Source of the DNA: a bacterium
GTDB taxonomy: Bacteria; Bacillota_I; Bacilli_A; RFN20; CAG-826
Assembly (NCBI GenBank): GCA_963638555.1
Contig: CAVHQU010000001.1
Location: forward strand, 169,309 to 233,308
Direction: 5' to 3'
DNA: 64,000 nucleotides
Below, piece by piece: positions 25,744-45,709 of this stretch. A model generated the notes under the pieces. That model was not told where the DNA came from and searched no databases. It saw nothing but the letters and a program-made list of their open reading frames with translations. A program made the translations under genes and the position numbers. Positions within the stretch are counted from its first letter, which is position 1. Every line of letters starts with the position of its first letter.

Positions 25744-25849
25744 AAATGTTAATTTGGTTCATCTAAATTAGAGTTTGGTTCATTAGTCTTTTAAAATGTA
25801 AGCGGTTTCTTTAATGTTTCCTCACAATCAAAATTTTGGAGGAAACACA

Positions 25850-27073
25850 ATGAAAAAGATTTTGACAATTAGTCTCCTAGCGACAATGGGCGCTTTGATG
25901 ACACTCACATCCTGTGGCGGAAGCAAGGAAAACACCGATTCATCAGCAAATGGTGCCTCTTCTGAAGAAACCGCTTCTTCTATCCAACCTGTAGTAGAAA
26001 GAAAATTGACTGGTTCATATTTAACTAGCGCTCAACTTTCTTATATGAATATGCGTCCAACATACAACTACTACACCACAAAATTCTCGTTCGAAGGCCT
26101 TGAAACATATTCAGATGGTTCTTACGTCTTCACGTTGGTTTCAATGTGCTATTCAGGTTTAAACTTACCAGAATCAGGTTCTGATGCCAGTGGATCCGAA
26201 AGAGAAAATTTTGTCAAAAAGTTCTATGGAACATATACATCTAAAACAAATGAATTAGATGATAGTATGTTAGACATCACTCTTGATATTCCTACACGTC
26301 TTACTAATGCATATAACTGTCAATATTTTGCTGATACAGCCGCCTGGACAGATGCAATGGCAACAGCCGTTTCAACAGATTCCTATGGTAACGTTTCAGA
26401 AACAAAATACACCGCTGAAACATATTTAGCGTCCCAAGCCTTCAATAAGACGACAGTTTCCGTTACAACATCTACCGCATCATTCGATTATTTCACTTTA
26501 AGAGAAGATGGCGCAGCTGATCCAAAAGTCACCGTCTCAACCGAAACATATGGTCTAACCGGTGCCTATCTTTCCCCATCAAGTTTAGCTTATAGCAATT
26601 TCCGCCCAACATATAACTACTACACCACAAGATTCGCGGAAGAGTACATCGAAACATATTCAGATGGAACATATCGCGCAGATATCATTTCTTCTATGTT
26701 CTCTGGATTAAACTTACCAGAAGAAGGAAATGATGCTAGTGGATCTGATCGTGCGAACTATATTCAAAGCTTCTATGGCAAATACGCATCCAAGACAAAT
26801 GAATTAGATGAAACCATGATTGATTTAACAATCAAATCACCAACGACAGTTAAATTAACATACGATGCTGCCTATTTCATTGATTCTGACAATTGGACAG
26901 ACGCAATGTCTAATGCAACCGCAACAACCGATAGAACAACTGGTGAGAAAACAATCAATTATAAAACTGGGGCAGAATATTTGAATGCAGTCAAATTCGA
27001 TGATCAAGAAATCTCTGTTACCACTTCAACAGCGTCATTTGATTTTATTAAATTAAGCGCTGAACTTAACTAA
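25850..27073 (+). CDS. Lipoprotein with internal tandem domain duplication
   Basis: Lipobox 'LTSCGG'; two ~150-aa repeats (RPTYNYYTT(K/R)F...YSDG(S/T)Y...SGLNLPE(S/E)G(S/N)DASGS...TNELD(D/E)(S/T)M(L/I)D(I/L)T); start ATG 25850 with RBS ggagga. Confidence 0.8.
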   Translation: MKKILTISLLATMGALMTLTSCGGSKENTDSSANGASSEETASSIQPVVERKLTGSYLTSAQLSYMNMRPTYNYYTTKFSFEGLETYSDGSYVFTLVSMCYSGLNLPESGSDASGSERENFVKKFYGTYTSKTNELDDSMLDITLDIPTRLTNAYNCQYFADTAAWTDAMATAVSTDSYGNVSETKYTAETYLASQAFNKTTVSVTTSTASFDYFTLREDGAADPKVTVSTETYGLTGAYLSPSSLAYSNFRPTYNYYTTRFAEEYIETYSDGTYRADIISSMFSGLNLPEEGNDASGSDRANYIQSFYGKYASKTNELDETMIDLTIKSPTTVKLTYDAAYFIDSDNWTDAMSNATATTDRTTGEKTINYKTGAEYLNAVKFDDQEISVTTSTASFDFIKLSAELN

Positions 27074-27090: not shown

Positions 27091-30012
27091 ATGAAATTCA
27101 GAAAATTTAGAGGAGGTGCGGCAATTGGTGTTTGTGTTCTTTCATTGAGCACATTCGCTTCAATTCTTGCCTTTGAGAACTCTGGGCAAGTCGATATTGC
27201 CTTAGGCATCACAGGTGAGAAAAACACCAAACAAAGTGCATACTCTTCATTAGAAGAAATGCATGTCGCTGAAAAGGCAAATGAAATCCAAACGGAAGAA
27301 GAAGGTTCTGTCCTTTTCTACAATGAAAATAATGCTCTTCCATTATCTAATGCAAAGAAAGTTACTTTACTTGGCAGAACGGCTGCCGACAATATCTTCA
27401 AAGGCGGATCAGGCGGATCAACTACCACAGATGAAACTGCCACTTCCCTTTATGAAGCGTTAACTGCTCAAGGATATTCAATCAACGAAACAGTTTATAA
27501 TGCCTTAAAAGAATCACCAATCAAACGTGCTAGAGGCGATATTGGCGAAGTTCCTGCATCCTTCTACACGGATGATATGAAAAACTCTTTCAAAGAATAC
27601 GGTGATGCGGCCATCATCGTCTTGGGGAGATACTCTGGCGAGCAACAAGACTTGTGCGCTGGAGGTGACTCAGGTCAAGATAATGCGGTTGATGCCAATG
27701 GCGATCCTGTGGATTCTTCAGGTATTCGTATGCTCGCTCTTCATGATGAAGAAAGAGACATGATCAAGATGGCGGTTGAATCAAAAGCATTCTCCAAAGT
27801 CGTTGTCTTGCTTAACACTGTTAACCCAATGGAAATTGGTGAACTCAAAGGATTAGGCGTTGATGCATGTTTATGGGTTGGGATTCCTGGCTATACTGGT
27901 TTTGAAGGGGTTGCAAACATCCTTTCAGGAAAGGCAGATCCTTCAGGTCGTTTAGCTGATACATATGCTACTAACTCCTTAAGTGCGCCTGCAATGAGAA
28001 ACTATGGTTCATTTAACTGGGATAACATCACAGCTTCAGGTCAAAATAAGTACTTGGTTTATGCAGAAGATATTTATATTGGTTATAAATATTACGAAAC
28101 ACGTTACAACGATCAAATATTAGGTATCAACAATGCCACTTCAAGCAAAGGTTGCTATGCTTCCTCTTCTTCTTGGGATTATGCAGCCGAAATGGATTAC
28201 ACATTTGGCTATGGTACATCTTATGCTTCATTCACTCAAAAACTTGATTCATTAAAATGGGACAAGGACGCTCATACTGTCACCGCAAAAGTCACAGTTA
28301 AGAATGAAGGTTCAACTTCTTATACTGGCAAATCTAAGAATACTGTCGAATTATACGCTTCCCTTCCTTATGAAAAAGGCCAAGCGGCTAAATCAGCCAT
28401 TCAATTGATTGGCTATGGCAAAACAAAAGAGTTGGCTAAAGGTGAGGAAGATACAGTCACAATCACTGTTGATGATTATCTATTTGCAACATACGACCAA
28501 AACGCAACAAACGGAGCCGACACAACAAAGAAAGGCTGCTACACATTTGATGCAGGTGAATATTTCTTCGCTATTGGTGCTGATGCTCATGACGCATTAA
28601 ACAATGTTCTAGCTAAAAAAGGCAAAACAGGTCTCTTCGATGCAGATGGTAAATCTGTTTCAGGTGACGTCTCAAAGGTTGCAACTGATACTTTGGCTCA
28701 ATTGGATAACGTTACCCATGCAAAATCTCATGAGAATGAAAATGTTGTTGTTTCCAACCAGTTTGATGATATGGACATCAACTATTTCGAAGATAACGCA
28801 GTCACATATCTAACAAGAGATGATTGGAATACCTATCCAGTTCGTTATACAGGTTTATCTGCGACAGATGATATGAAAACTATCATCGATGGTCATACAT
28901 ATTCAAAACCAGCTGACGCACCAGACATCTCCGAATTCAAATATTCTCAAAAATATGATGAGACCATGATGCTAGCTGAACTCGTCAATGAGCCATATGA
29001 TTCCGATAAATGGGATACGTATATTGATCAATTAACGCCTTCTCAACTTGCCGCAATCACTGGCGAAAAGTTTGGCAACACAGGCTTAACTGACTATGGT
29101 TGCCCAGACAACTCTGCAGCCGATGGCCCAGATGGTATTCAAGCAAACACTGGCTTCTCTCATGTATGCGAAAACCTTGCAGCTTCAACATATAATGATG
29201 AATTATTGAAGAAACGTGGTGAATTCATGGCTGAAGACGGCATGTATTCAGGTCAAAACGGTGTTTATGGATTTGGTGCAAACATGCATAGAACCGTATA
29301 TGCCGGAAGAAACTTTGAATACTATTCCGAAGATATGATTCTTTCTTACCTTGCTGGCGCAGCCCAAACAAAAGCGGCCCAAGATAAAGGATTAACAACA
29401 TACGTTAAGCATTTCTGCGCTAACGACCAAGAAGTTTGGAGAAACGGTTCTTCAACAATCATGCGCGAACAAGCATATCGTCAAGGACCACTCAAAGGTT
29501 TTGAAGGCTCCTTCACCAAAGGAGAATCTCTTGGAACGATGACCTCTAACGCCCGTGTTGGCTTTAGAACAGTTTCTATGGACTATGGCACTATGACAAC
29601 TGTTCTTAGAAACGAATGGGGATTTAAAGGAACGGCCATGACCGACTCCTCTAAAGGTTCAACTCATTATCTCTATACAAAGGAATCAGTTGCAGCTGGT
29701 ATCGATCAATTTAACAACGACGAAACCAGAGGAACAACAGACATGAAAAACTATCTCATCAAGGAAAAAGATGGTTATCTTTGGAAGAGGGCAAGGGAGA
29801 TAGCCCATCACTACTTCTACACAATCTCTAGAAACTTCTGTATGTCTGGTTTATCAAAAGACACAGTTGTCGAATCAAAGACATCTTGGTGGAAAACAGC
29901 ATTAATCGCTTTAATAAGCGTTGAAGCAGTTATCACAGTCGGCTTAGCTGGCACAGCTGCCGTTGGGGGAATCCTCTCCTACAGCAAAAAAAGAAAGGAA
30001 GGTAACGAATAA
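27091..30012 (+). CDS. Glycoside hydrolase family 3 protein, domain-permuted, with N-terminal signal and C-terminal TM anchor
   Basis: GH3 catalytic-domain motif 'VKHFCANDQEVWRNG' in the C-terminal half; GH3 alpha/beta sandwich and Fn3-like domains precede it; terminal hydrophobic helix + KKRK. Confidence 0.8.
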   Translation: MKFRKFRGGAAIGVCVLSLSTFASILAFENSGQVDIALGITGEKNTKQSAYSSLEEMHVAEKANEIQTEEEGSVLFYNENNALPLSNAKKVTLLGRTAADNIFKGGSGGSTTTDETATSLYEALTAQGYSINETVYNALKESPIKRARGDIGEVPASFYTDDMKNSFKEYGDAAIIVLGRYSGEQQDLCAGGDSGQDNAVDANGDPVDSSGIRMLALHDEERDMIKMAVESKAFSKVVVLLNTVNPMEIGELKGLGVDACLWVGIPGYTGFEGVANILSGKADPSGRLADTYATNSLSAPAMRNYGSFNWDNITASGQNKYLVYAEDIYIGYKYYETRYNDQILGINNATSSKGCYASSSSWDYAAEMDYTFGYGTSYASFTQKLDSLKWDKDAHTVTAKVTVKNEGSTSYTGKSKNTVELYASLPYEKGQAAKSAIQLIGYGKTKELAKGEEDTVTITVDDYLFATYDQNATNGADTTKKGCYTFDAGEYFFAIGADAHDALNNVLAKKGKTGLFDADGKSVSGDVSKVATDTLAQLDNVTHAKSHENENVVVSNQFDDMDINYFEDNAVTYLTRDDWNTYPVRYTGLSATDDMKTIIDGHTYSKPADAPDISEFKYSQKYDETMMLAELVNEPYDSDKWDTYIDQLTPSQLAAITGEKFGNTGLTDYGCPDNSAADGPDGIQANTGFSHVCENLAASTYNDELLKKRGEFMAEDGMYSGQNGVYGFGANMHRTVYAGRNFEYYSEDMILSYLAGAAQTKAAQDKGLTTYVKHFCANDQEVWRNGSSTIMREQAYRQGPLKGFEGSFTKGESLGTMTSNARVGFRTVSMDYGTMTTVLRNEWGFKGTAMTDSSKGSTHYLYTKESVAAGIDQFNNDETRGTTDMKNYLIKEKDGYLWKRAREIAHHYFYTISRNFCMSGLSKDTVVESKTSWWKTALIALISVEAVITVGLAGTAAVGGILSYSKKRKEGNE

Positions 30013-30449
30013 TGAATAACTACATCAAAGGGACCTTGCTTAGAAAAAGAAATATAGGCGAATGGATTACATTAGGCGTCAGCGTCTATATGTTAATCGT
30101 TGCAATCGTTTATCTTATTCTTGATGGCGGAGCAATGAAAATTCCAGATTACTCTAAAACATTAGCGTTCTGGATGTTGATTGCTGGCTCCATACTTGGA
30201 TTATCAACCGCTTTCTATGACGTTCGTTTCCTCAATTCAAGCATTACCCTAGTCTCGTTCGCCTGTTTCTCCGTTGCGGCTGGAAGACAACTCTATCTTG
30301 CCGGTTATCCAATTGCCGATTTAGCTACTGGAGTCAACTGGTTTGGCGGAAGCCTAGGTATTTACCTTGGCATGTTCATCGCGATGATGATTGGCGTTAT
30401 CGTCGAAATATTCGCATTATTCATGAAACAAAGTAAATTTGAAGACTAA
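30012..30449 (+). CDS. Small 4-TM membrane protein, hypothetical
   Basis: 145 aa, start overlaps GH3 stop (TAATG); hydrophobic. Confidence 0.55.
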   Translation: MNNYIKGTLLRKRNIGEWITLGVSVYMLIVAIVYLILDGGAMKIPDYSKTLAFWMLIAGSILGLSTAFYDVRFLNSSITLVSFACFSVAAGRQLYLAGYPIADLATGVNWFGGSLGIYLGMFIAMMIGVIVEIFALFMKQSKFED

Positions 30450-32404: not shown

Positions 32405-32424
32405 TCGATTCAATTCAATATTAA

Positions 32425-32449
32425 GCGTTACATGATGTAACGCTTTTTT
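32425..32449 (+). terminator. Rho-independent terminator (agcgttacat-g-atgtaacgct-TTTTT)
   Basis: 10-bp palindrome + T-run after pepP. Confidence 0.7.
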
Positions 32450-32518
32450 GTTACGTTTGTTTCATTATAATTGAATTTTAACTAAATTTTACATATACTT
32501 TCGTCATGAGAAAAAAAT

Positions 32519-34108
32519 ATGTGCCAAAAATTATCGCACCTTCTTCTATTTATCTCTACAATCGTCTCCGTTTCTAATTTTGGCGTATCAAGAAGTCAAA
32601 AGTCTACTAACGAAAAAACGTTTTTTTCTAGGAAACTTATTCGTTCAACCAAGAAATCAGAAAAGAATGAGGATTCCTATTTTGATTATAAATTTGATGG
32701 AGCAAACGAATACCGGGAATCTAATGGCGATGAATTTGAAAAAGTTGATTGTATAAACGGCTCAAATTCATCAATAAAAATTCAAAATGAACCGGGCCGA
32801 GAAACTGTATTGAAAGCAGTTACTGAGCCAAATAGTGAAAGCACAAAAACGATTTCATATAACGATATCAAAGAGAATAATGATACTTTTTTAACTGCAA
32901 CCAATATGTATTCAGTTGGTTCATATAAGGACGGAATCACAAAAATGTGGTCTTGGCGTTATGCGACCATAAATCAAAAAACGGAGGGACCGCTTTGGTG
33001 GAAGAAAACATACATTGATAAAGATTTTTATTCGTTCGATGTAGCTTGCAGCGGAACGTTAAATATTTCTTTAACTGAGATTCCATCGAATTGTGACTAT
33101 GACATGCGTTTATATAGATTAGAAGATGAAATAAACGCAAACGCCGCTACATTAAATTTTGATAACTATGAAGGGTGCAGCCGAAATTCAAAAGGCCAGG
33201 ATGAATATATCTCATACTCTGTTGTGCCTGGAACATATTATATTTGTGTTTATTCATATAACGATCAAACTTATGATAATGACAATCCGTATAAAATTAC
33301 GTTTGAAGAAATATCTAATTCCGGAACAAGCGAAACTTCTTACTATATAGATGTCGGGAGAGTTGAAAACGACATAGGAGCTATATGGATAAGTGATTAC
33401 TCTCCTTTCGGTTTATCGCCGATGACTTTAACGGACACCCAAGCAAGGAAAAAATTCACAAACTATGATTGTTACCCATATATACAACATTTAGCGAACA
33501 ATTATGAAGATTGTAGCATCAATTTCGCAGTTCTTTACCTCTGGAATTTGCAAGCGCGTGCTTATATATATGCTTGGGCACAAAACATATTGAACTCATT
33601 ATACAATTACAATAATTGGGCAAATGATTCTGTAAGTTCTTTTGGGGTCCATTTAAACGATGCTTCAATGGCAGTAACAGTTGGTGGGACAATCATAAAC
33701 ACAATAAGCGAAGCCACAATCGCAGAAACTGCAAAAGCCGCTTTAAACTCATTAGGCTTTTTATCCAGTCTCGCTGGATCTGTGATATCTCTAATTTCTT
33801 TTGTGAACTCATTTTCTTTGGAGAATGAGTTTCAAATCAGCAGAAAGAATTTGATTCAATATTTGGTTAATATCAAGGCGGCCTTTGAAATAGGAACCGG
33901 CAGTAACGAAGATCAAACGATAATGCTTAAATTCAGATATCACTTCAGTGAAAAACAATATATTGATTGGTCACCAAGGTACGAATTAGGCGAAGCAAAT
34001 ATGCATAATGAAGATTACGTTTCACTTCAAATTCCAGGTAGTGGGATAAAAGGAACGGCACATGGAATACACTCAACAACCGATTTAGAAAAATATTTAA
34101 GGAGTTAA
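32519..34108 (+). CDS. Secreted protein with PPC-like (pre-peptidase C-terminal-type) beta-sandwich domain and C-terminal hydrophobic hairpin; module 1
   Basis: Signal peptide; 'DKDFYSFDV...GTLNISL...CDYDMRLY...PGTYYICVYSYNDQ...NPYKITFEE' fits the PPC pattern D.D.Y.F/D.DL.LY/G.YY.V.Y; ~50-aa Gly/Ala/Ser-rich hydrophobic segment near C-terminus; paralog of 34605..36176. Confidence 0.7.
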   Translation: MCQKLSHLLLFISTIVSVSNFGVSRSQKSTNEKTFFSRKLIRSTKKSEKNEDSYFDYKFDGANEYRESNGDEFEKVDCINGSNSSIKIQNEPGRETVLKAVTEPNSESTKTISYNDIKENNDTFLTATNMYSVGSYKDGITKMWSWRYATINQKTEGPLWWKKTYIDKDFYSFDVACSGTLNISLTEIPSNCDYDMRLYRLEDEINANAATLNFDNYEGCSRNSKGQDEYISYSVVPGTYYICVYSYNDQTYDNDNPYKITFEEISNSGTSETSYYIDVGRVENDIGAIWISDYSPFGLSPMTLTDTQARKKFTNYDCYPYIQHLANNYEDCSINFAVLYLWNLQARAYIYAWAQNILNSLYNYNNWANDSVSSFGVHLNDASMAVTVGGTIINTISEATIAETAKAALNSLGFLSSLAGSVISLISFVNSFSLENEFQISRKNLIQYLVNIKAAFEIGTGSNEDQTIMLKFRYHFSEKQYIDWSPRYELGEANMHNEDYVSLQIPGSGIKGTAHGIHSTTDLEKYLRS

Positions 34109-34110
34109 TC

Positions 34111-34608
34111 ATGATAGAAAAAAATTACATAATCAGCAAATCTCAGCATTTTAAATGGAAATTCAGAAGTGCTTGGCCATTTTATTTAGTGATGGTTTCA
34201 TCCTTTTTGGCAGCATTTTCTTCTTTTGTTGCTATCGGCTGTAAAATCAATTTAAATCAAATGGACAATTCTTATTTCTTTTTATACATAATCTTCTTAG
34301 TTTGTCTTCCTTTAGGACTATTAACGTTACGTTTAATCATTAATTTTTCAAATAAAATTCTTTTCGAAGATGTCAAAGTAGAAATAGACCCATTCACCAA
34401 AACAATAACCGTCACTAGTAAGGATGACAGGGGCAATGTACTAACGACCATAAATAAAATTGCATATAAAAAGGAAAAGAAAAAATATTTCATATTGGGC
34501 AGAGAATGGGGGCGTTTCTTTTACGTCCCGAAAGCCGGAATGAAGAAAGACGACATTAAAACAATCAGAGCAATAAAACCATTGAAAGTTGAGAAATATC
34601 ATCAATGA
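34111..34608 (+). CDS. Small 2-TM membrane protein with cytoplasmic beta-rich (bacterial PH-like?) domain; module 1 partner
   Basis: 'KWKFRSAWPFYLVMVSS...' two TM helices then ~90 aa soluble domain; paralog of 36179..36661; overlaps next gene (ATGA). Confidence 0.65.
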   Translation: MIEKNYIISKSQHFKWKFRSAWPFYLVMVSSFLAAFSSFVAIGCKINLNQMDNSYFFLYIIFLVCLPLGLLTLRLIINFSNKILFEDVKVEIDPFTKTITVTSKDDRGNVLTTINKIAYKKEKKKYFILGREWGRFFYVPKAGMKKDDIKTIRAIKPLKVEKYHQ

Positions 34609-36176
34609 GAAATCACAAAATCACAAAAAACATATCTTTAGCTTTTTTATTCATTTTATCATCATTGACGCCCTCAGCAAGAAGTCAAAACCTATCATTC
34701 TTTAGTGGGCAAAAAATAAGCAAAAGATTAGAACTCCAAGCATCTAAAAAGGATGATTCAAATTTTGATTATGAATTTGATACTTCTTCCTCTTTCTCAA
34801 ACAATGGGTCCGACGAATTCGAATCTATGGGATTAAACGATGGAAAACGGTCAGGAGAAAAAATAGAAAATAATAACGGGGAAATTTATGTCACAAAAAA
34901 TGAAAACAATGTTACTAAAAGTGATATTTCTACAGCAACTTATAACGATAGCTGCGAAAACAATGACTCTTTTTTAACCGCTTCAAGTGCTTATGCCGTT
35001 GGCACGAACGATGGTGGAATATATAAACATTGGGTTTGGTGCTATGCAACAATTAGTCAAAAAACTGAAGGCATGCTTTGGTGGAAACAGACCTATATAG
35101 ACAAGGATTTCTATTCTTTTGATGTAGTTTCGGTTGGAACTTTAAAGGTTACTTTAAGTGATATTCCTACTAATTGTGATTATGATCTACGTTTATATAA
35201 AATTGAAGACAAATTAGAATGCTCATATGCCAGTTGTAACTTTGATGATCCGATTGCCTCAAGTGCAAATGCATCGAATACGGATGAGAATGTTTCGATT
35301 TCGGTTAAACCTGGAACATATTACGCTTGTGTCTATTCTTACAAAGACCAAACTTTTGATAACAACAACCCATATAAATTGACATTTGAAGAGGATGTAG
35401 ATGACACAAGGTATGGTTCATATTATTCTATAAATAATGGAAGAAATGATGGAGATTTAGGTGCAGTATGGCGCAGCGACTACAAACCGTTAGGAATTAC
35501 TCCAGTAAACATATCAGAAGAAAACGCCCAAGTAGGTCTTGCAAATTCATCCACTTATCCGTACATAAAGCATTTGATTGATAAATATTCTTCTGACGAA
35601 AAAATTACATACGCCATAGTTTATGTATGGGATGTTGAACTAAGAGCGTTGATACGATCTGCATTACAATTGATATTAGAAGAAATCTACGAAAGAGAGG
35701 AAACATATTTCAATGCATTTAATATAAGTTGGAATGCGGCAAATTTATTTATTTCAATAGGCGGCCTTATTGTAAGCACTATATCTTTGGCTAATATAGC
35801 AACATCGGCTTTATTAACTGGTGCAATAACCGCAACTTCACTTTCGATGGGTTTTATTTCAACAATTTTATCATTTGCTATAGGTTATCAATTCCAAATA
35901 GAAAGACAAGAATTGATAAATTATTTAATAAATGCAATAAGCGCCTTTGAAGTTGGAAAAGGAAGCAATAATAAAGAAGTCGTAATGTTAAAGTTCAAAT
36001 ATAGGTTCATTAAAAAAGAACGTTGGTATTTAGATTGGACTCCATCTTATGATGTAGATGGTCAAAATAGATATAACGAAGATCAAATTACTCATCAATT
36101 GAAAGGAAGTCCAATAAACGGAAGGATAATAGGTTTTCAAGACGAACACACTCTATACAACTTATTAGGATTTTAG
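34605..36176 (+). CDS. Secreted PPC-like-domain protein with C-terminal hydrophobic hairpin; module 2
   Basis: ~40% identical over full length to 32519..34108 (…WWKQTYIDKDFYSFDV…NCDYDLRLY…PGTYYACVYSYKDQTFDNNNPYKLTFEE…). Confidence 0.7.
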   Translation: MRNHKITKNISLAFLFILSSLTPSARSQNLSFFSGQKISKRLELQASKKDDSNFDYEFDTSSSFSNNGSDEFESMGLNDGKRSGEKIENNNGEIYVTKNENNVTKSDISTATYNDSCENNDSFLTASSAYAVGTNDGGIYKHWVWCYATISQKTEGMLWWKQTYIDKDFYSFDVVSVGTLKVTLSDIPTNCDYDLRLYKIEDKLECSYASCNFDDPIASSANASNTDENVSISVKPGTYYACVYSYKDQTFDNNNPYKLTFEEDVDDTRYGSYYSINNGRNDGDLGAVWRSDYKPLGITPVNISEENAQVGLANSSTYPYIKHLIDKYSSDEKITYAIVYVWDVELRALIRSALQLILEEIYEREETYFNAFNISWNAANLFISIGGLIVSTISLANIATSALLTGAITATSLSMGFISTILSFAIGYQFQIERQELINYLINAISAFEVGKGSNNKEVVMLKFKYRFIKKERWYLDWTPSYDVDGQNRYNEDQITHQLKGSPINGRIIGFQDEHTLYNLLGF

Positions 36177-36178
36177 CT

Positions 36179-36661
36179 ATGGAAAATTTAGTAATGGTTT
36201 TAAATGTTAGTGGTTTAAGGAAATGGAAATTTCAATCAGGATGGGGCTACCTAATACCAGCAATTATAGTCATCCCATTTTCAATTTTTATTGCCGTTGA
36301 ACTCATTTTAAGCGTAAATGGTAATATCGAAAGACTTCAAACTGCAAACATATATACATATTGGTACTTCATATCATTATTGTTATTACCATCGTCAATA
36401 ATGCCATATAAGCATTACTCCAAGGAAATGTATGGTAAACAGTTAAAATTGAAAGTTTCATTCGACGAAAAAGTTGTAACCGGGACATTCATGGCAAAAA
36501 ATGGAGATACTCGTTCTAACAAAATAGAAATTGAATATGTAAAAGAATATGTCAAATATTTTAAGATTGGAAGAAGTTTCTACAACTTCTATTTCCTTCC
36601 AAAAAGCAAATTATCTAAAGAGCAATTAGAAGCAATTAGAAGCTTAAAAAAGCCTAATTAG
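36179..36661 (+). CDS. Small 2-TM membrane protein; module 2 partner
   Basis: 'RKWKFQSGWGYLIPAIIV...' same architecture as 34111..34608 incl. C-terminal 'YFKIGRSFYNFYFLPK' vs 'YFILGREWGRFFYVPK'. Confidence 0.65.
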   Translation: MENLVMVLNVSGLRKWKFQSGWGYLIPAIIVIPFSIFIAVELILSVNGNIERLQTANIYTYWYFISLLLLPSSIMPYKHYSKEMYGKQLKLKVSFDEKVVTGTFMAKNGDTRSNKIEIEYVKEYVKYFKIGRSFYNFYFLPKSKLSKEQLEAIRSLKKPN

Positions 36662-36956
36662 AAATACACGCCTCCGCTATTTTTAAAATCTTTAACAGTT
36701 TTTTCTAATATAAATTCGTTTTCGGTTTGAGTAAGAATTTTGCATTTATTACCATTTCTATACTCACCATCAGAATCGGCTAAATTAAGAGTTTTCATTC
36801 CTTTTAATTCAAGTTCATATGTGTTGACATAACCGCCACTCTCATATTTGCTAGCTCATAAGTTGGTTGTCAATTATTTCATTTGAACCATGATAAACTA
36901 TCATGATTGTATTTTACTACAATATTTTTTACTTATATTCTTGTATTTGAATACAA

Positions 36957-40837: not shown

Positions 40838-43072
40838 ATGAAAAAATCCAAATTATTAGCAGTCACTCTTCTAGGAGCAGTCTTGGCCTTAGCAGGTTGT
40901 GGCGAAACTCACACTTCTTCATCCGAAGGAGCATCTTCATCCACTGAATCTAGCGTTTCCGGAAGTTCATCATCTTCATCGTCAAGTTCAGAAGTTTCAT
41001 CTTCATCATCCGAAGAAGCATCAAGCAGTTCATCAAGTTCTGATTCAACACCAGCAGGTTTATCAAAGGCTGATGTTTCTGACATCATTGCAAAAGCAAT
41101 CACAGCTCAAGGAACAAAAGTCTGCAGTGGTGTAATGTCGGATGATTATGGTTCAACCACATCATATGAATATGGTACAGATAAGTACGGTAACTTCACA
41201 AAGATTACAAATTCCTATAGCACATACTATTATGGTTATAATGCTGCAGGTGACATCTACGGTCTCCAAGTCTCATCGTATAATGGATCTTTATCAACCC
41301 CATGGAGCGTTGATGCAAAATCAATCTACGGCCCTAGCGCATATTTTTCTTCTGTAAACACTGGTTCATACCTTTATGGTGTTCAAGGCATTCTTGAGCA
41401 TATCTCTGGCGTTATTGAAGCCGATGCCAATGGTGATTTTGAAGTCGATGGCGATAGCACAGCATTCTCATTTAGCGTTGGTGTCGTCGGAACATTATGG
41501 GGCAGCACGGCCTTACATGTATGGTCACTTGATTTCACGATGGAAGATGACATAGTTAGTGTCCTTACAGTCAAATGCACATCATATACAGGTGACAATA
41601 TCGAAGCCGATTATGAAACAAACAAATATTCAGTTGTTGAAGGAGCCGATGCTGAACAAACAACCAGATTTGTATTCGCTCAATCAATTGGCGACAAAAC
41701 TGCAACAAACCCATATGATATCGAAGGTTTATATTTCACTTCCGTCAACTACAAAGATTCCGATGGAAACGATCTTGGCGCAGAATATTCAGTAGGTGCA
41801 TCCAGCAACATTGCCTTTACTGTTGATTCGTATGAACCATCTACAGCAAGCTTTAGCATCGATGGAATCACGTTGACCCACGATAATACCGACAATCCAT
41901 ATGGCATCTCTGGTGGTTACTACAATGGCAAATATACCATCTACGCTTATAACGAAGGCGACTACAACGTTACACTATCAACAGCCCACACTTCTAAGAC
42001 ATTCCTTCTCCACGTCACAAAACCAACAGCAAGCGAAATCAGCTATGTCCAAGGTTATACAAAAGAAGGCGATACATATTCTTATGTCGATGTTAATGAA
42101 GAAGCCAAAGCAACCGTCTATGCTGGACAATCTATCTCTTTAAGCGCAACAATTTCTCCAACAAAAGCTGATCAATCCTACACAGCAGAGATTGTAGGTG
42201 ATAATGCTGATGATGCAACATTGGTTTCCGAAACAATCAAACCAGATACATGGTCTGATGATACAAGTGTTTATACATTCACATCCAACGTCCCAGGCAC
42301 ATACGAAGTTAAGATTACTTCCGCAACAGTTACAACTGTCAGCAAGACAATCACAATCACTGTCGTTGCTGCTCCAGAACTCTCTGGCTTACTTGCAAAG
42401 AGATATACATACACAGTCGCTGAACCTGGCACTGGCGTTAAGATCTACGACGATATCACATTCACCCCAAGTGCATCTGATGCAACAACAGGTACCGTTT
42501 CTATCTACACATATGACTATGAAAATTCAACTGGCTCTACCGTTGAATGCTCCTACACATATGATGCAGTAACAAGATCATTCTCATTAACGAAAGATGG
42601 CGCAGCGTATACGACTGTAAGCTTAGCATTCTCCACATCCTATAACTTAGTAATTACAACTGGAAGCGGTGATGATGCAGTTTCAACAATCGTTAAAGAA
42701 TTCGATGTCGCAACAATCTTAAAGAACACAGCCTGGTATGCTACAGCCAGCAATGATGCAGATGTTTCCTTTAGTTTCATGTACGATGGAACAGTTTCAT
42801 TCGAAACATGCATTTCCGGATATGATGAATGGGGCGATTGGGATTACACGCTTGATGCATATAAATACTATATGGATTACTCCATCAGTGAAACAGATGA
42901 AGGTTATGTTATCGTTCTCAGCCAAGATGACTTAGACGAAATTGCCGAAATGGATTCTGGTTTCGATGGAATCACTAAGATTGTTATGGCAAAGGATTTC
43001 TCCAAACTAAGCGTCACTCTCTCTTATGATGGAACGGCCGAAACTGTAGACTGCTCTTATACCAGAGGTTAA
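40838..43072 (+). CDS. Large Ser-rich surface lipoprotein
   Basis: Lipobox 'LALAGCGE'; >70-residue poly-Ser tract; 744 aa. Confidence 0.8.
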   Translation: MKKSKLLAVTLLGAVLALAGCGETHTSSSEGASSSTESSVSGSSSSSSSSSEVSSSSSEEASSSSSSSDSTPAGLSKADVSDIIAKAITAQGTKVCSGVMSDDYGSTTSYEYGTDKYGNFTKITNSYSTYYYGYNAAGDIYGLQVSSYNGSLSTPWSVDAKSIYGPSAYFSSVNTGSYLYGVQGILEHISGVIEADANGDFEVDGDSTAFSFSVGVVGTLWGSTALHVWSLDFTMEDDIVSVLTVKCTSYTGDNIEADYETNKYSVVEGADAEQTTRFVFAQSIGDKTATNPYDIEGLYFTSVNYKDSDGNDLGAEYSVGASSNIAFTVDSYEPSTASFSIDGITLTHDNTDNPYGISGGYYNGKYTIYAYNEGDYNVTLSTAHTSKTFLLHVTKPTASEISYVQGYTKEGDTYSYVDVNEEAKATVYAGQSISLSATISPTKADQSYTAEIVGDNADDATLVSETIKPDTWSDDTSVYTFTSNVPGTYEVKITSATVTTVSKTITITVVAAPELSGLLAKRYTYTVAEPGTGVKIYDDITFTPSASDATTGTVSIYTYDYENSTGSTVECSYTYDAVTRSFSLTKDGAAYTTVSLAFSTSYNLVITTGSGDDAVSTIVKEFDVATILKNTAWYATASNDADVSFSFMYDGTVSFETCISGYDEWGDWDYTLDAYKYYMDYSISETDEGYVIVLSQDDLDEIAEMDSGFDGITKIVMAKDFSKLSVTLSYDGTAETVDCSYTRG

Positions 43073-43102: not shown

Positions 43103-45709
43103 ATGAAAAAACAAATATTAATTACCAGTGCGGCTATGCTTATGGCATTAGCTGCCACTGGTTGTAACGGAAACAATCAAAGTTCAGAAAGCGACGTTGC
43201 TTCGTCAGATGATTCTACGAGCAGCGTTGCTTCCTCCTCATCCGCTTCACCAATCATCGTTGATGATTTCTCTGAAGCATTAAGCAATACACGTTACTAC
43301 GCAATCACGAGCTCATCCGGCGAGAAAACATATTACACAGAAGTTTTTACTGATAACTTCTACTATAGTGGCACTAGCTCATCCGGATACATGATTCCCG
43401 AAGAAGATAGTGGATACATCCACCCAGTATCGGGCAATTACAGTGATGGCGAAGATGGTTCATATTCTTTAGCAATTAACGTTTATGGGCGTGTAGCTGA
43501 AGCCAAGCAATATTCAGTTATCAGAAGTTCTACATTCTTAGGTTTGGTCAATAATTACGTAAAAACTTTCGAAAAGGTAAGTGATACAAAATTCAAATCT
43601 ACTGATGAAACTCTTATTTCTGAAGTTGCATATTTCTTTGAATCCAAATTGCTTCGCTACGCCAATAACATCGTTTTTGATGTTGATGACTTAGGCAGAA
43701 TTTCTCATCTCTACATTAACGAAGACGATGAATCACTCATGGATTCAGCAATCTCTGAGGTCGAACGTACAGATGTCTACCTATATAACGACTGGGTAAA
43801 GAATGGCTCAATTATTGAAGATCGTATCCAAGACTACAAGAACTTAGATAGCGCTCTTCTTAACCCAAAGTCTCTTTACAATAACCAAATCGTCAAATTC
43901 AACGCAATAGTCACTGGTGTCGATGACAATGGTGATGTCTATGTTGCCCAAACAGATTCAACAGGCGTTAACATTGGCATGCGTATCGAAGGAGTCTCTA
44001 ACAAAAACTTCGAAGTCTATGACAATGTCGTAGTTGAAACCACAATTGCAACAAATAACAATGTTGTTTACGGTACGAATGGTGTTATTACATACGTCTC
44101 TGAAGGCAATTATATTCCTCAATTTTCTGAAGAGGGGATTGTTGATTACTATGGTGGAGGATACTATGCCTACTACTATTTCTCTTCTTCTACATACTAC
44201 GCTGATTCGATCTATACGACATATGCATATGTTGCTACATTGCCAGAATTGGTTTCCGGTAAGGATTTAGTCGTATCACTTGTCTTCCCTAATGTTTACA
44301 GCGCTACCGAGACTTATTATGCAAGTTTTGTCCTTCCTTCATATTTAAACGATGAAACAAGAACATTGGCATATAACACTCTTAAAGCAGCTGGTATCTA
44401 TGGCGAAGATGATGCATATGAATTATGTTTTGACTCAATCATCATGAGAAGAAACGCTTCAGTTAAAGGTTTCTCCCTTCAACTCCTCCCAAGTTCTTTA
44501 ATTTATAAGAAGCTTACGGCCGTTCAAAAGATTGAACAAATATGTGGCTTAGCAAACTTCCCGTTGCCAACAAGCGTCACTCCTTTATCATATAAATTTG
44601 GTAAAGGCACTGACTACAATCTTGAATCACAATATGGAATCACAACCAGCGATAACGTTAACGGTTTGTTCGTTGGCGAAACTGATATTTCAGAAGATGA
44701 CTACAATACATTTATCTCTAGCCTAGAGACAATAGGTGTCACCAAATATGATGAAATAGAGGATACGTATAGCTATCGTCACCTCATTTACACATATAAT
44801 GGCTACATCATTGATACGATGTTTGTTGCAGCCACTTGGATTGGGGCTTCAAACCAATTAAGTATCTGGATTTATAAATCCGATACCGCAAATATAGTTA
44901 GATGCCCAACCGTTCAAGAACGCATAAAGGAAAAAGCCCCATGGTTTGATTCTTCATCTTTCTTGAGATATGCAGATAGCTATGACGCAGATTATCACGT
45001 CTTTGAAATTAGTAATTACGCTAACGTTCAATATGACGAACCACTAATCGCCGTAACATTAGATCTCAACACAAATGTTGGCGAAGATTACAAAAAGACT
45101 CTTGTTCAGACGATGGGTTATAAGCAATACAAAGTTGATGGTAAATCCTATACCTATAAATCAAGAGGACAAGTCCATTACGTCTTTCAAAAAGATGAAG
45201 GCCAATTCGTTGATGTTGCTACATATCCAACAACCGATTATACATACACGGGTCACGCCAAATGGAATTACCGTGTTGAAATACTAATCTATCGTGGAGA
45301 TGCTCCAATCACTGTTCCAACCTATTCTGATTTGACTCCTCTATCAGATTTGTATGCGGCTAAGGATTCTTCTCTTGCATATGCCTCAGCATTACCAAGC
45401 GACGCTAAAGTCGAAGTATGGAAAGATATGTGGGAAGATGATCCATATTATGATCTTCTCAAATATGGCTATTGTCACCGTGATGAAGCGTTCGTATACA
45501 CATCAAATATTGATGAAGCATACGAATCAATCAAGACAGGCTTAGCAAACGCTGGATATAAAGAGTCCGAAACATATGAAGAATATGAAAACTGCACTCT
45601 TTATAGCAGGGTCTTCAAAGGTGAATATTATTACGTATTCGTCATGAAAACCACAAAAGGCTATGTACGCGTCATAAACGACTTAGGCGGCATGGATTTC
45701 TATAGTTAA
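43103..45709 (+). CDS. Large surface lipoprotein
   Basis: Lipobox 'LAATGCNG'; Ser-rich linker; 868 aa. Confidence 0.8.
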   Translation: MKKQILITSAAMLMALAATGCNGNNQSSESDVASSDDSTSSVASSSSASPIIVDDFSEALSNTRYYAITSSSGEKTYYTEVFTDNFYYSGTSSSGYMIPEEDSGYIHPVSGNYSDGEDGSYSLAINVYGRVAEAKQYSVIRSSTFLGLVNNYVKTFEKVSDTKFKSTDETLISEVAYFFESKLLRYANNIVFDVDDLGRISHLYINEDDESLMDSAISEVERTDVYLYNDWVKNGSIIEDRIQDYKNLDSALLNPKSLYNNQIVKFNAIVTGVDDNGDVYVAQTDSTGVNIGMRIEGVSNKNFEVYDNVVVETTIATNNNVVYGTNGVITYVSEGNYIPQFSEEGIVDYYGGGYYAYYYFSSSTYYADSIYTTYAYVATLPELVSGKDLVVSLVFPNVYSATETYYASFVLPSYLNDETRTLAYNTLKAAGIYGEDDAYELCFDSIIMRRNASVKGFSLQLLPSSLIYKKLTAVQKIEQICGLANFPLPTSVTPLSYKFGKGTDYNLESQYGITTSDNVNGLFVGETDISEDDYNTFISSLETIGVTKYDEIEDTYSYRHLIYTYNGYIIDTMFVAATWIGASNQLSIWIYKSDTANIVRCPTVQERIKEKAPWFDSSSFLRYADSYDADYHVFEISNYANVQYDEPLIAVTLDLNTNVGEDYKKTLVQTMGYKQYKVDGKSYTYKSRGQVHYVFQKDEGQFVDVATYPTTDYTYTGHAKWNYRVEILIYRGDAPITVPTYSDLTPLSDLYAAKDSSLAYASALPSDAKVEVWKDMWEDDPYYDLLKYGYCHRDEAFVYTSNIDEAYESIKTGLANAGYKESETYEEYENCTLYSRVFKGEYYYVFVMKTTKGYVRVINDLGGMDFYS

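Follow-up and report, generated by a model that had tools for sequence, protein, structure and literature searches.

A tandemly duplicated gene pair in reduced-genome gut Bacilli encodes a large exported PPC-domain protein with a hydrophobic hairpin and a small two-helix membrane protein, a candidate membrane-inserting protein and its cognate partner

Introduction

Pore-forming colicins (colicin A/Cai, colicin E1/Cei) are soluble exported proteins that hide a long uncharged helical hairpin. Immunity to them is provided by a small polytopic membrane protein that is encoded adjacent to the toxin gene and probably recognises the helices inside the bilayer once they have inserted; specificity varies among related pairs. 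Here we describe a tandemly duplicated pair of genes, for a large exported protein and a small membrane protein, which invites comparison with such systems. It lies in a stretch of 64,000 nucleotides (the window; GCA_963638555.1, contig CAVHQU010000001.1, positions 169,309 to 233,308, forward strand) from a bacterium of the GTDB lineage Bacillota_I; Bacilli_A; RFN20; CAG-826.

Small proteins of broadly this layout, two transmembrane (TM) helices with a bacterial PH domain, have been linked to bacteriocins: the YdbS-like proteins DdE and DdF are required to export the leaderless bacteriocin EntDD14 and to avoid self-toxicity (PMC8657885). In the literature on YcxB, and on PPC (pre-peptidase C-terminal) domains with bacteriocins or immunity, we found no description of the pair. 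Many gene pairs without an assigned function exist in metagenomes. The reduced-genome gut Bacilli in which this one occurs are known from metagenomes only, and the pair is a candidate weapon or surface system of these organisms. An earlier note on this DNA, made from the sequence alone, had drawn attention to the locus and proposed an effector with its immunity protein; we consider that proposal, together with its alternatives, below.

Results

A tandem duplicate of one gene pair

The module consists of four co-oriented open reading frames (ORFs), L1-S1-L2-S2, at window 32519-36661, and is a tandem duplicate of one gene pair. L1 (32519-34108, plus strand, 529 residues) and its paralogue L2 (34605-36176, plus strand, 523 residues) are 42% identical from end to end (E 6e-141), and the small partners S1 (34111-34608, plus strand, 165 residues) and S2 (36179-36661, plus strand, 160 residues) are 28% identical (E 5e-19). 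The identity of about 40% that the earlier note gave for both partners thus holds for the large proteins and is too high for the small ones. A sister assembly (L034; GCA_963592895.1, CAVAYT010000020.1), which is 99.1% identical to the window over 9.97 kb, has the same L1-S1-L2 order up to its contig end, equivalent to window 32519-36161. Because the duplicate layout is also present there, the duplication is real, and with the four-ORF layout and the identities this bears out the view of a module that was duplicated and then diverged.

Within each pair the two genes are separated by 2 nucleotides (nt), as TAA-TC-ATG at 34106-34113 and TAG-CT-ATG at 36174-36181. The ATGA overlap formerly ascribed to the partners occurs only once, between the stop of S1 and the start of L2 (34605-34608). 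The AAGGAG Shine-Dalgarno sequence of S1 sits within the 3' end of L1. Upstream, a terminator-like hairpin (32423-32445, plus strand; a 10-bp stem followed by a T run) ends the preceding M24 peptidase gene and forms the 5' boundary of the module. A promoter-like site, TTGAAT-17-TATACT (32471-32499, plus strand), lies 20 nt 5' of the L1 start; it was picked by consensus alone, and shuffled sequence contains such sites no less often. Between this site and L1 is an A7 run (about 32510-32517) whose length differs in the sister assembly. Given the terminator-like hairpin, the promoter-like site and the gene spacing, the four genes look like a single operon.

The large proteins combine an ordinary PPC domain with a domain of no recognised family

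Both large proteins begin with a hydrophobic N-terminal leader that probably serves as a Sec-type signal. In L1 there follow an N-motif (residues 53-105) in which Y57, D71 and E74 are invariant, a linker modelled with low confidence, and a PPC beta-sandwich of the collagen-binding-domain-like kind (32873-33310, plus strand, residues 119-264, including an ENNDTF N-terminal motif); the corresponding domain of L2 lies at about 34956-35393. The PPC assignment had been made in the earlier note and is secure, with scores against PF04151 of 44.3 bits for L1 and 31.8 bits for L2 (gathering cut-off 25.9), and the L1 domain has the beta-sandwich fold of the ColG collagen-binding domain. An attached peptidase domain is the usual context of PPC, although not a requirement for membership, and none was found in L1 or L2 with Pfam or NCBIfam.

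The remainder of each large protein, about 260 residues that we call domain X (L1 33314-34105, plus strand, residues 266-529; L2 35394-36173), is modelled by AlphaFold2 as an alpha/beta domain with a predicted local distance difference test score (pLDDT) mostly of 83-93. Its two halves flank a hydrophobic hairpin and fold together in the model. Every structural match of the large protein in the fold search was limited to the PPC sandwich, none falling on X. Domain X had no match in per-member Pfam scans, PDB sequence searches with single proteins and profiles returned only chance TM or nanobody matches, and the full-length proteins had no match in NCBIfam, PADLOC or PHROGs. Across the Pfam, NCBIfam, PADLOC and PHROGs libraries the module as a whole yielded only PPC and a sub-threshold YcxB match on the small proteins. 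The earlier statement that no known family could be assigned therefore stands beyond PPC, and the match to a housekeeping family that the earlier note had named as decisive against its reading was looked for in families and structures and not found. One family member matched TcdA_TcdB_pore at E 0.011, below significance. No profile of an anti-phage defence component (PADLOC) or phage protein (PHROGs) matched, and a comparison with polymorphic toxins (LXG of the type VII secretion system, contact-dependent inhibition, Rhs, MafB) revealed neither trafficking domains nor secretion-system genes; the same X domain is kept across the family and is not swapped as in polymorphic toxin cassettes. The invariant positions of X are aromatic, Pro, Gly and aliphatic residues with one Ser, and in the family alignment His, Asp, Glu, Cys and Lys are nowhere invariant, which makes an enzyme unlikely.

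A hydrophobic hairpin with small-residue stripes

The hairpin (L1 33641-33820, plus strand, residues 375-434) lies between helix 344-363 and strand 437-441 of L1 and comprises two 22-residue segments and a tip with almost no charge family-wide; in L2 (35718-35885, plus strand, residues 372-427) it falls inside a 66-residue run without charged residues. In 29 relatives this region contains uncharged runs of up to 66 residues, usually with two 19-residue windows of Kyte-Doolittle hydropathy of at least 1.6, and values reach 2.66. Column statistics place the two segments at L1 376-397 and 410-431, both striped with Gly, Ser, Asn and Thr at i, +4, +7, +11, +14, +18 and +21; occupancy by these residues is 0.91 and 0.79 on the stripe versus 0.17 and 0.14 off it. 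Such spacing is that of a helix and is consistent with a zipper of small residues. Conservation in the large proteins is lowest in the hairpin (29% identity between L1 and L2; family mean 25%), and its counterpart in distant relatives is less hydrophobic, includes charged residues and has many beta-branched ones.

The double-helix segment of the earlier note is thus matched by the conservation pattern, whereas AlphaFold2 builds its first half (L1 residues 372-397, window 33632-33709) as three short strands inside the fold with a pLDDT of 83-88. For the second segment and the turn the model is poor (pLDDT 48-52). Residues 372-397, with strands in the model and a helical heptad stripe in the family alignment, may be structurally ambivalent, as in ClyA-type beta-tongues, or the model may be in error. 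Lys and Arg average 0.24 per sequence in the hairpin tip and 1.5 and 2.2 in its flanks. With a poor tip and rich flanks, the hairpin does not follow the positive-inside rule for a built-in anchor with flanks out and tip in; Lys-rich flanks would suit binding from outside.

The soluble domain of the small proteins is predicted to be cytoplasmic

The AlphaFold2 model of S1, of modest confidence (pLDDT 63), has a short N-terminal strand, TM helices at residues 22-45 and 54-80, and a C-terminal domain of five strands and a helix that may be PH-like; S2 would likewise have two TM helices and a PH-like domain. Against the YcxB-like family PF14317, the scores of S1 (14.8 bits) and S2 (13.5 bits) fall short of the cut-off of 23.3, and even at E<=1 only these two of 19 partners match. 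No match to bPH_2 (PF03703) was listed for the small proteins at E<=1, no gene for a YdbT-like six-TM partner is present among the neighbouring genes, and a word-index search with S1 alone retrieved only itself. A PH-like or YcxB-like nature of the soluble domain is therefore a lead with weak support and falls short of demonstrated membership. In 34 partners, Lys and Arg number 167 in the N-terminal tails and 44 in the inter-helix loops, from which an N-in topology is predicted, the loop, with a median of about 11 residues, lying outside and the C-terminal domain in the cytoplasm. With the soluble domain predicted to be cytoplasmic, any contact with the exported partner would have to be made within the membrane or through the short outside loop.

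The pairing is conserved throughout the core family

The large protein is rare, with just 34 clusters in a set of 5.8 billion proteins. Scanning a single genome from each species defined a core family of 21 loci (L022 and L023, which share only PPC, were left out) in metagenome-assembled genomes of uncultured 'Bacilli', 'Mollicutes' and Candidatus Enterosoma. An ORF of 129-176 residues with two hydrophobic helices overlaps the large gene or begins within a few nt of its stop at all 21 core loci. The co-occurrence on which the earlier note had staked its reading is thus general in the core family, and the copy number that it proposed to count is 1-3 per genome. Two small genes (Sa and Sb) follow the large gene at seven of the 21 loci; the whole pair in tandem is found, among the core loci scanned, in the window only. 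The same pair occurs in three further metagenome contigs, in unrelated housekeeping neighbourhoods.

Leave-one-group-out hidden Markov models (HMMs) place most partners, Sa and Sb both, in one family (E 1e-5 to 1e-16), with those of L006/7 and L013/14 marginal. By HMM, two-TM proteins that keep a small beta domain but have no detectable homology to the main partner family occupy the partner position in L015 (11457-11876), L021 (11320-11709), L024 (2517-3032) and L025 (2043-2456), and by inspection L041 (2503-2973) has a similar two-TM, beta-domain partner. At these loci the partner may have been replaced and the architecture kept.

Domain X has 105 representatives among 1.84 billion proteins by exhaustive HMM search. 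After PPC-X, proteins of the distant tier continue with additional PPC-like repeats, Big_2 or other modules. A two-TM ORF lies downstream of P0059 and at three of three evaluable metagenome loci of the P0059-like subfamily, and also downstream of P0065 and P0067; a hand-made DNA pattern for distant relatives found six loci, all of one subfamily. Among distant relatives there was no clear relation between the presence of a partner and hairpin hydrophobicity, the number being small. P0086 is preceded by a gene fragment (L027/L028, 1-1422) with a GTSFSAPLV motif that is subtilisin (S8)-like by eye. A phage, plasmid or prophage origin was considered and rejected, as no relatives were found in the phage, plasmid and IMG/VR collections.

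The module evolves quickly and decays

In loci syntenic with hprK, where HprK is 98-99% identical, the large proteins are 72-82% and the small proteins 46-80% identical; at 89% HprK identity these values fall to 46-48% and 23-33%. The pair is therefore diversifying, as had been proposed, and its genes are constrained but fast-evolving. In the hprK-syntenic loci L016-L019 and L010 the synonymous divergence (dS) of the module is about 1.5-4 or saturated, versus 0.57-0.96 for hprK, an excess that might reflect older alleles, recombination or differences in codon usage.

Between the window and the sister assembly the flanking genes differ mostly by synonymous changes (synonymous:nonsynonymous, GH3 17:2, M24 22:5). 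L1 has 4 synonymous and 11 nonsynonymous changes, including W161R at a family-invariant Trp (W161), L2 of the sister carries a nonsense codon (Q28*), and its S1 is frameshifted by a 1-nt deletion in an A7 run. Further broken copies are L008, with a truncated large gene and a split small gene, and L020, with a frameshift. Taken together, this decay, the sister-strain lesions and the patchy copies indicate that the module behaves as an accessory, dispensable element. Window and sister differ by just two indels, at 32511 in the leader just 5' of the L1 start and at 34118 in S1 codons 3-5; both fall in A7 runs and could be phase variation or homopolymer assembly errors.

Neighbouring genes

The flanking genes are housekeeping in character (GH3, M24 aminopeptidase, alpha/beta hydrolase, MGMT, GuaA), and no secretion-system or mobile-element genes lie near the module in the window. 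On the minus strand at 36658-36906 a broken gene remnant starting MIVYHGSNEIIDN, with stops and a frameshift, occupies the space from S2 to the convergent hydrolase gene; it has a sub-threshold N-terminal match to DUF3990 (E 0.0028). The segment 27091-30449 encodes a 973-residue GH3 protein, which has a leader resembling a signal peptide and a TM anchor at its C terminus, and then a 145-residue ORF (30012-30449) that shares one base with the GH3 gene, appears multi-pass hydrophobic by eye and has no family match. This is another pairing of a large exported and a small membrane protein, and its small ORF is identical in the sister strain. ORFs of 419, 744 and 868 residues at 25814-27073, 40838-43072 and 43103-45709 have no significant Pfam family.

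Discussion

Several observations, namely the leader, the PPC domain, the zipper-striped hairpin, the adjacent and faster-evolving membrane partner and the patchy decay, are together best read as a protein that is exported and inserts into membranes, together with a cognate partner that confers immunity or handles it within the membrane, a reading by analogy that we favour tentatively. The adjacency generally expected of a toxin and its immunity gene is conserved at all 21 core loci, in the three metagenome contigs and in the sister assembly, with the partner being facultative in distant relatives. The toxin, pore and immunity terms of the earlier note are best kept as a proposal by analogy. 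We consider it rather doubtful, although attractive, that X founds a new structural class of pore-forming antibacterial proteins in uncultured gut Bacilli, exported by Sec and built on a helical hairpin, with a YcxB-like partner as in-membrane immunity.

We infer the following course of events, apart from steps backed by a cited result. One operon would make all four genes, with each small gene translationally coupled to its large gene, and the large protein would leave the cell via Sec. The conserved ColG-type PPC sandwich would bind a surface ligand on the target, and domain X would then free the two 22-residue Ser/Gly-zipper helices, which might insert as a hairpin into the bilayer from its outer face and form oligomers. 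In the producing cell, the small protein, with only about 11 residues exposed outside, would meet the hairpin in the membrane through its own two TM helices, and these would block or remove it, while the cytoplasmic PH-like domain would keep the small protein in an oligomer or at the membrane. Duplication and divergence would have given two specificities, L1/S1 and L2/S2.

Several findings weigh against a membrane-inserting protein with an immunity or handling partner. The best-conserved region of the large proteins is PPC (61% identity between L1 and L2; family mean 51%), not the 'toxin' part, and X is unlike the known pore-formers (colicin pore domain, ClyA/Hbl, aerolysin/CPE, MACPF/CDC, TcdA/B) in sequence or fold. 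AlphaFold2 builds the first hairpin segment as strands. A conserved cytoplasmic domain is unnecessary for simple immunity, and both Sa and Sb persist stably in species after species, a pattern closer to subunits than to orphan immunity genes. Four of the seven distant X subfamilies examined lack a two-TM partner (P0063, P0076, P0086, P0090), and this includes P0090, the hairpin of which is very hydrophobic. Finally, the ratio of nonsynonymous to synonymous divergence (dN/dS) across the syntenic species is 0.03-0.26 with dS saturated, and positive selection is not demonstrated.

The surface system that the earlier note had offered as an alternative remains the main rival, possible though on the unlikely side. 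In it the two helices would stay in the producer membrane as a re-entrant anchor during Sec export, with PPC and both halves of X outside, and the TM helices of the small protein would pack with the hairpin as a four-helix bundle, tying an external binding module, for adhesion or for capture of host or cell-wall polymers, to the cytoplasmic PH-like domain. From established knowledge of export, segments with hydropathy up to 2.66 would by default be expected to leave SecYEG into lipid, and the modelled folding together of both X halves around the hairpin, a small protein that is nearly all membrane and cytoplasm, the conservation of both Sa and Sb and that of PPC, the ligand-binding part, all point the same way; translational coupling would suit a stoichiometric complex. 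Fast evolution and decay would be seen in surface antigens too. A lipobox-like Cys after the leader in some relatives would give extra tethering, but this Cys is not conserved even in close relatives. The charge distribution of the hairpin, moreover, is the reverse of that expected for an anchor with flanks out and tip in, and several distant relatives are without a partner. A stalkless, membrane-pinned protein would also lie beneath the wall, an odd place for an adhesin, if the organism is RF39-type and walled; RF39-type Bacilli are mostly predicted to retain a peptidoglycan wall (PMC10868615), although the window organism itself is not placed in RF39.

It is more doubtful still that the large protein is a soluble secreted binding protein, in which the hairpin is the packed hydrophobic core of X and never enters a membrane, with the small protein having a separate role such as regulation or help in the export and folding of a hydrophobic substrate. 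Bacterial PH membrane proteins have indeed been implicated in the export of hydrophobic peptides (PMC8657885). AlphaFold2 builds residues 372-410 into the fold with a pLDDT of 83-88, small-residue stripes permit close packing of helices or strands alike, the equivalent region of distant relatives is less hydrophobic, charged and rich in beta-branched residues, and the partner is dispensable in several of these. This would leave unexplained why the fastest-evolving part of the protein is a hairpin beside a fast-evolving partner, and the second segment and turn that such a core would include are the poorly modelled ones. To our knowledge, water-soluble domains with such uncharged runs are very unusual, except for inside-out toxin domains; runs of 48-66 residues together with two TM-grade windows count against a soluble X on this general knowledge, which is uncalibrated here. 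Least probable, and very much so, is that X is an unrecognised hydrolase- or peptidase-like enzyme targeted by PPC and inhibited or regulated by the small protein. PPC typically accompanies secreted peptidases (by its Pfam definition, and subtilases were matched in the fold searches), the distant relative P0086 adjoins the fragment that is subtilisin-like by eye, and X is alpha/beta in the model. An enzyme is hard to reconcile with the lack of invariant His, Asp, Glu, Cys or Lys and of any Pfam, NCBIfam or PDB enzyme match, and a partner that lies mostly in the cytoplasm would be unable to inhibit an active site outside the cell.

In the libraries and literature searched we found no description of domain X, of the partner family or of the two together, and PPC is ordinary; if the toxin reading holds, the families are new and the kind of system is known. 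As a self-contained, fast-evolving and often-duplicated pair, the module offers a handle on the role of two-TM bacterial PH-like membrane proteins. Were X indeed a pore-former with in-membrane immunity, this would be the first concrete function for a widespread uncharacterised type of bacterial PH-domain membrane protein, and L1/S1 and L2/S2 would be a natural matched set for mapping helix-helix specificity. Should the protein instead prove to be a surface complex or soluble, X would still be a new domain family, of ordinary interest.

Among described systems, the YcxB-like (PF14317) and YdbS/DdE-type two-TM bacterial PH proteins resemble S1 and S2 only below the Pfam cut-off and by a model with a pLDDT of 63; unlike the YdbS/DdE systems, the window has neither a YdbT-like large partner nor a gene for a peptide bacteriocin. 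ColG, ColH and other PPC (PF04151) proteins differ from L1 and L2, which have no attached peptidase domain and the PPC of which contains a conserved insertion of about 35 residues (ATISQKTSGW..W.KTY). Clostridium perfringens enterotoxin (CPE) has its domains in the opposite order, and its alignment with L1 is confined to the sandwich; its pore module is an aerolysin-like beta-pore-former and it has no partner gene. The likeness to colicins lies in the hidden uncharged hairpin and the adjacent small membrane protein and is one of analogy only: X has no sequence or fold similarity to the colicin pore domain, which is an all-alpha ten-helix bundle whereas X is alpha/beta, and the window module has neither a receptor/translocation domain architecture nor a lysis gene. 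Export here would be through a Sec-type leader in an organism of Gram-positive lineage, and the partner combines two TM helices with a predicted cytoplasmic PH-like domain. The ClyA family (ClyA, Hbl, Nhe) consists of proteins exported in soluble form whose hydrophobic 'beta-tongue', about 30-50 residues long, has beta structure in the soluble protein and is helical in the pore, a duality which parallels the strands modelled in X by AlphaFold2 and the helical periodicity of its conservation.

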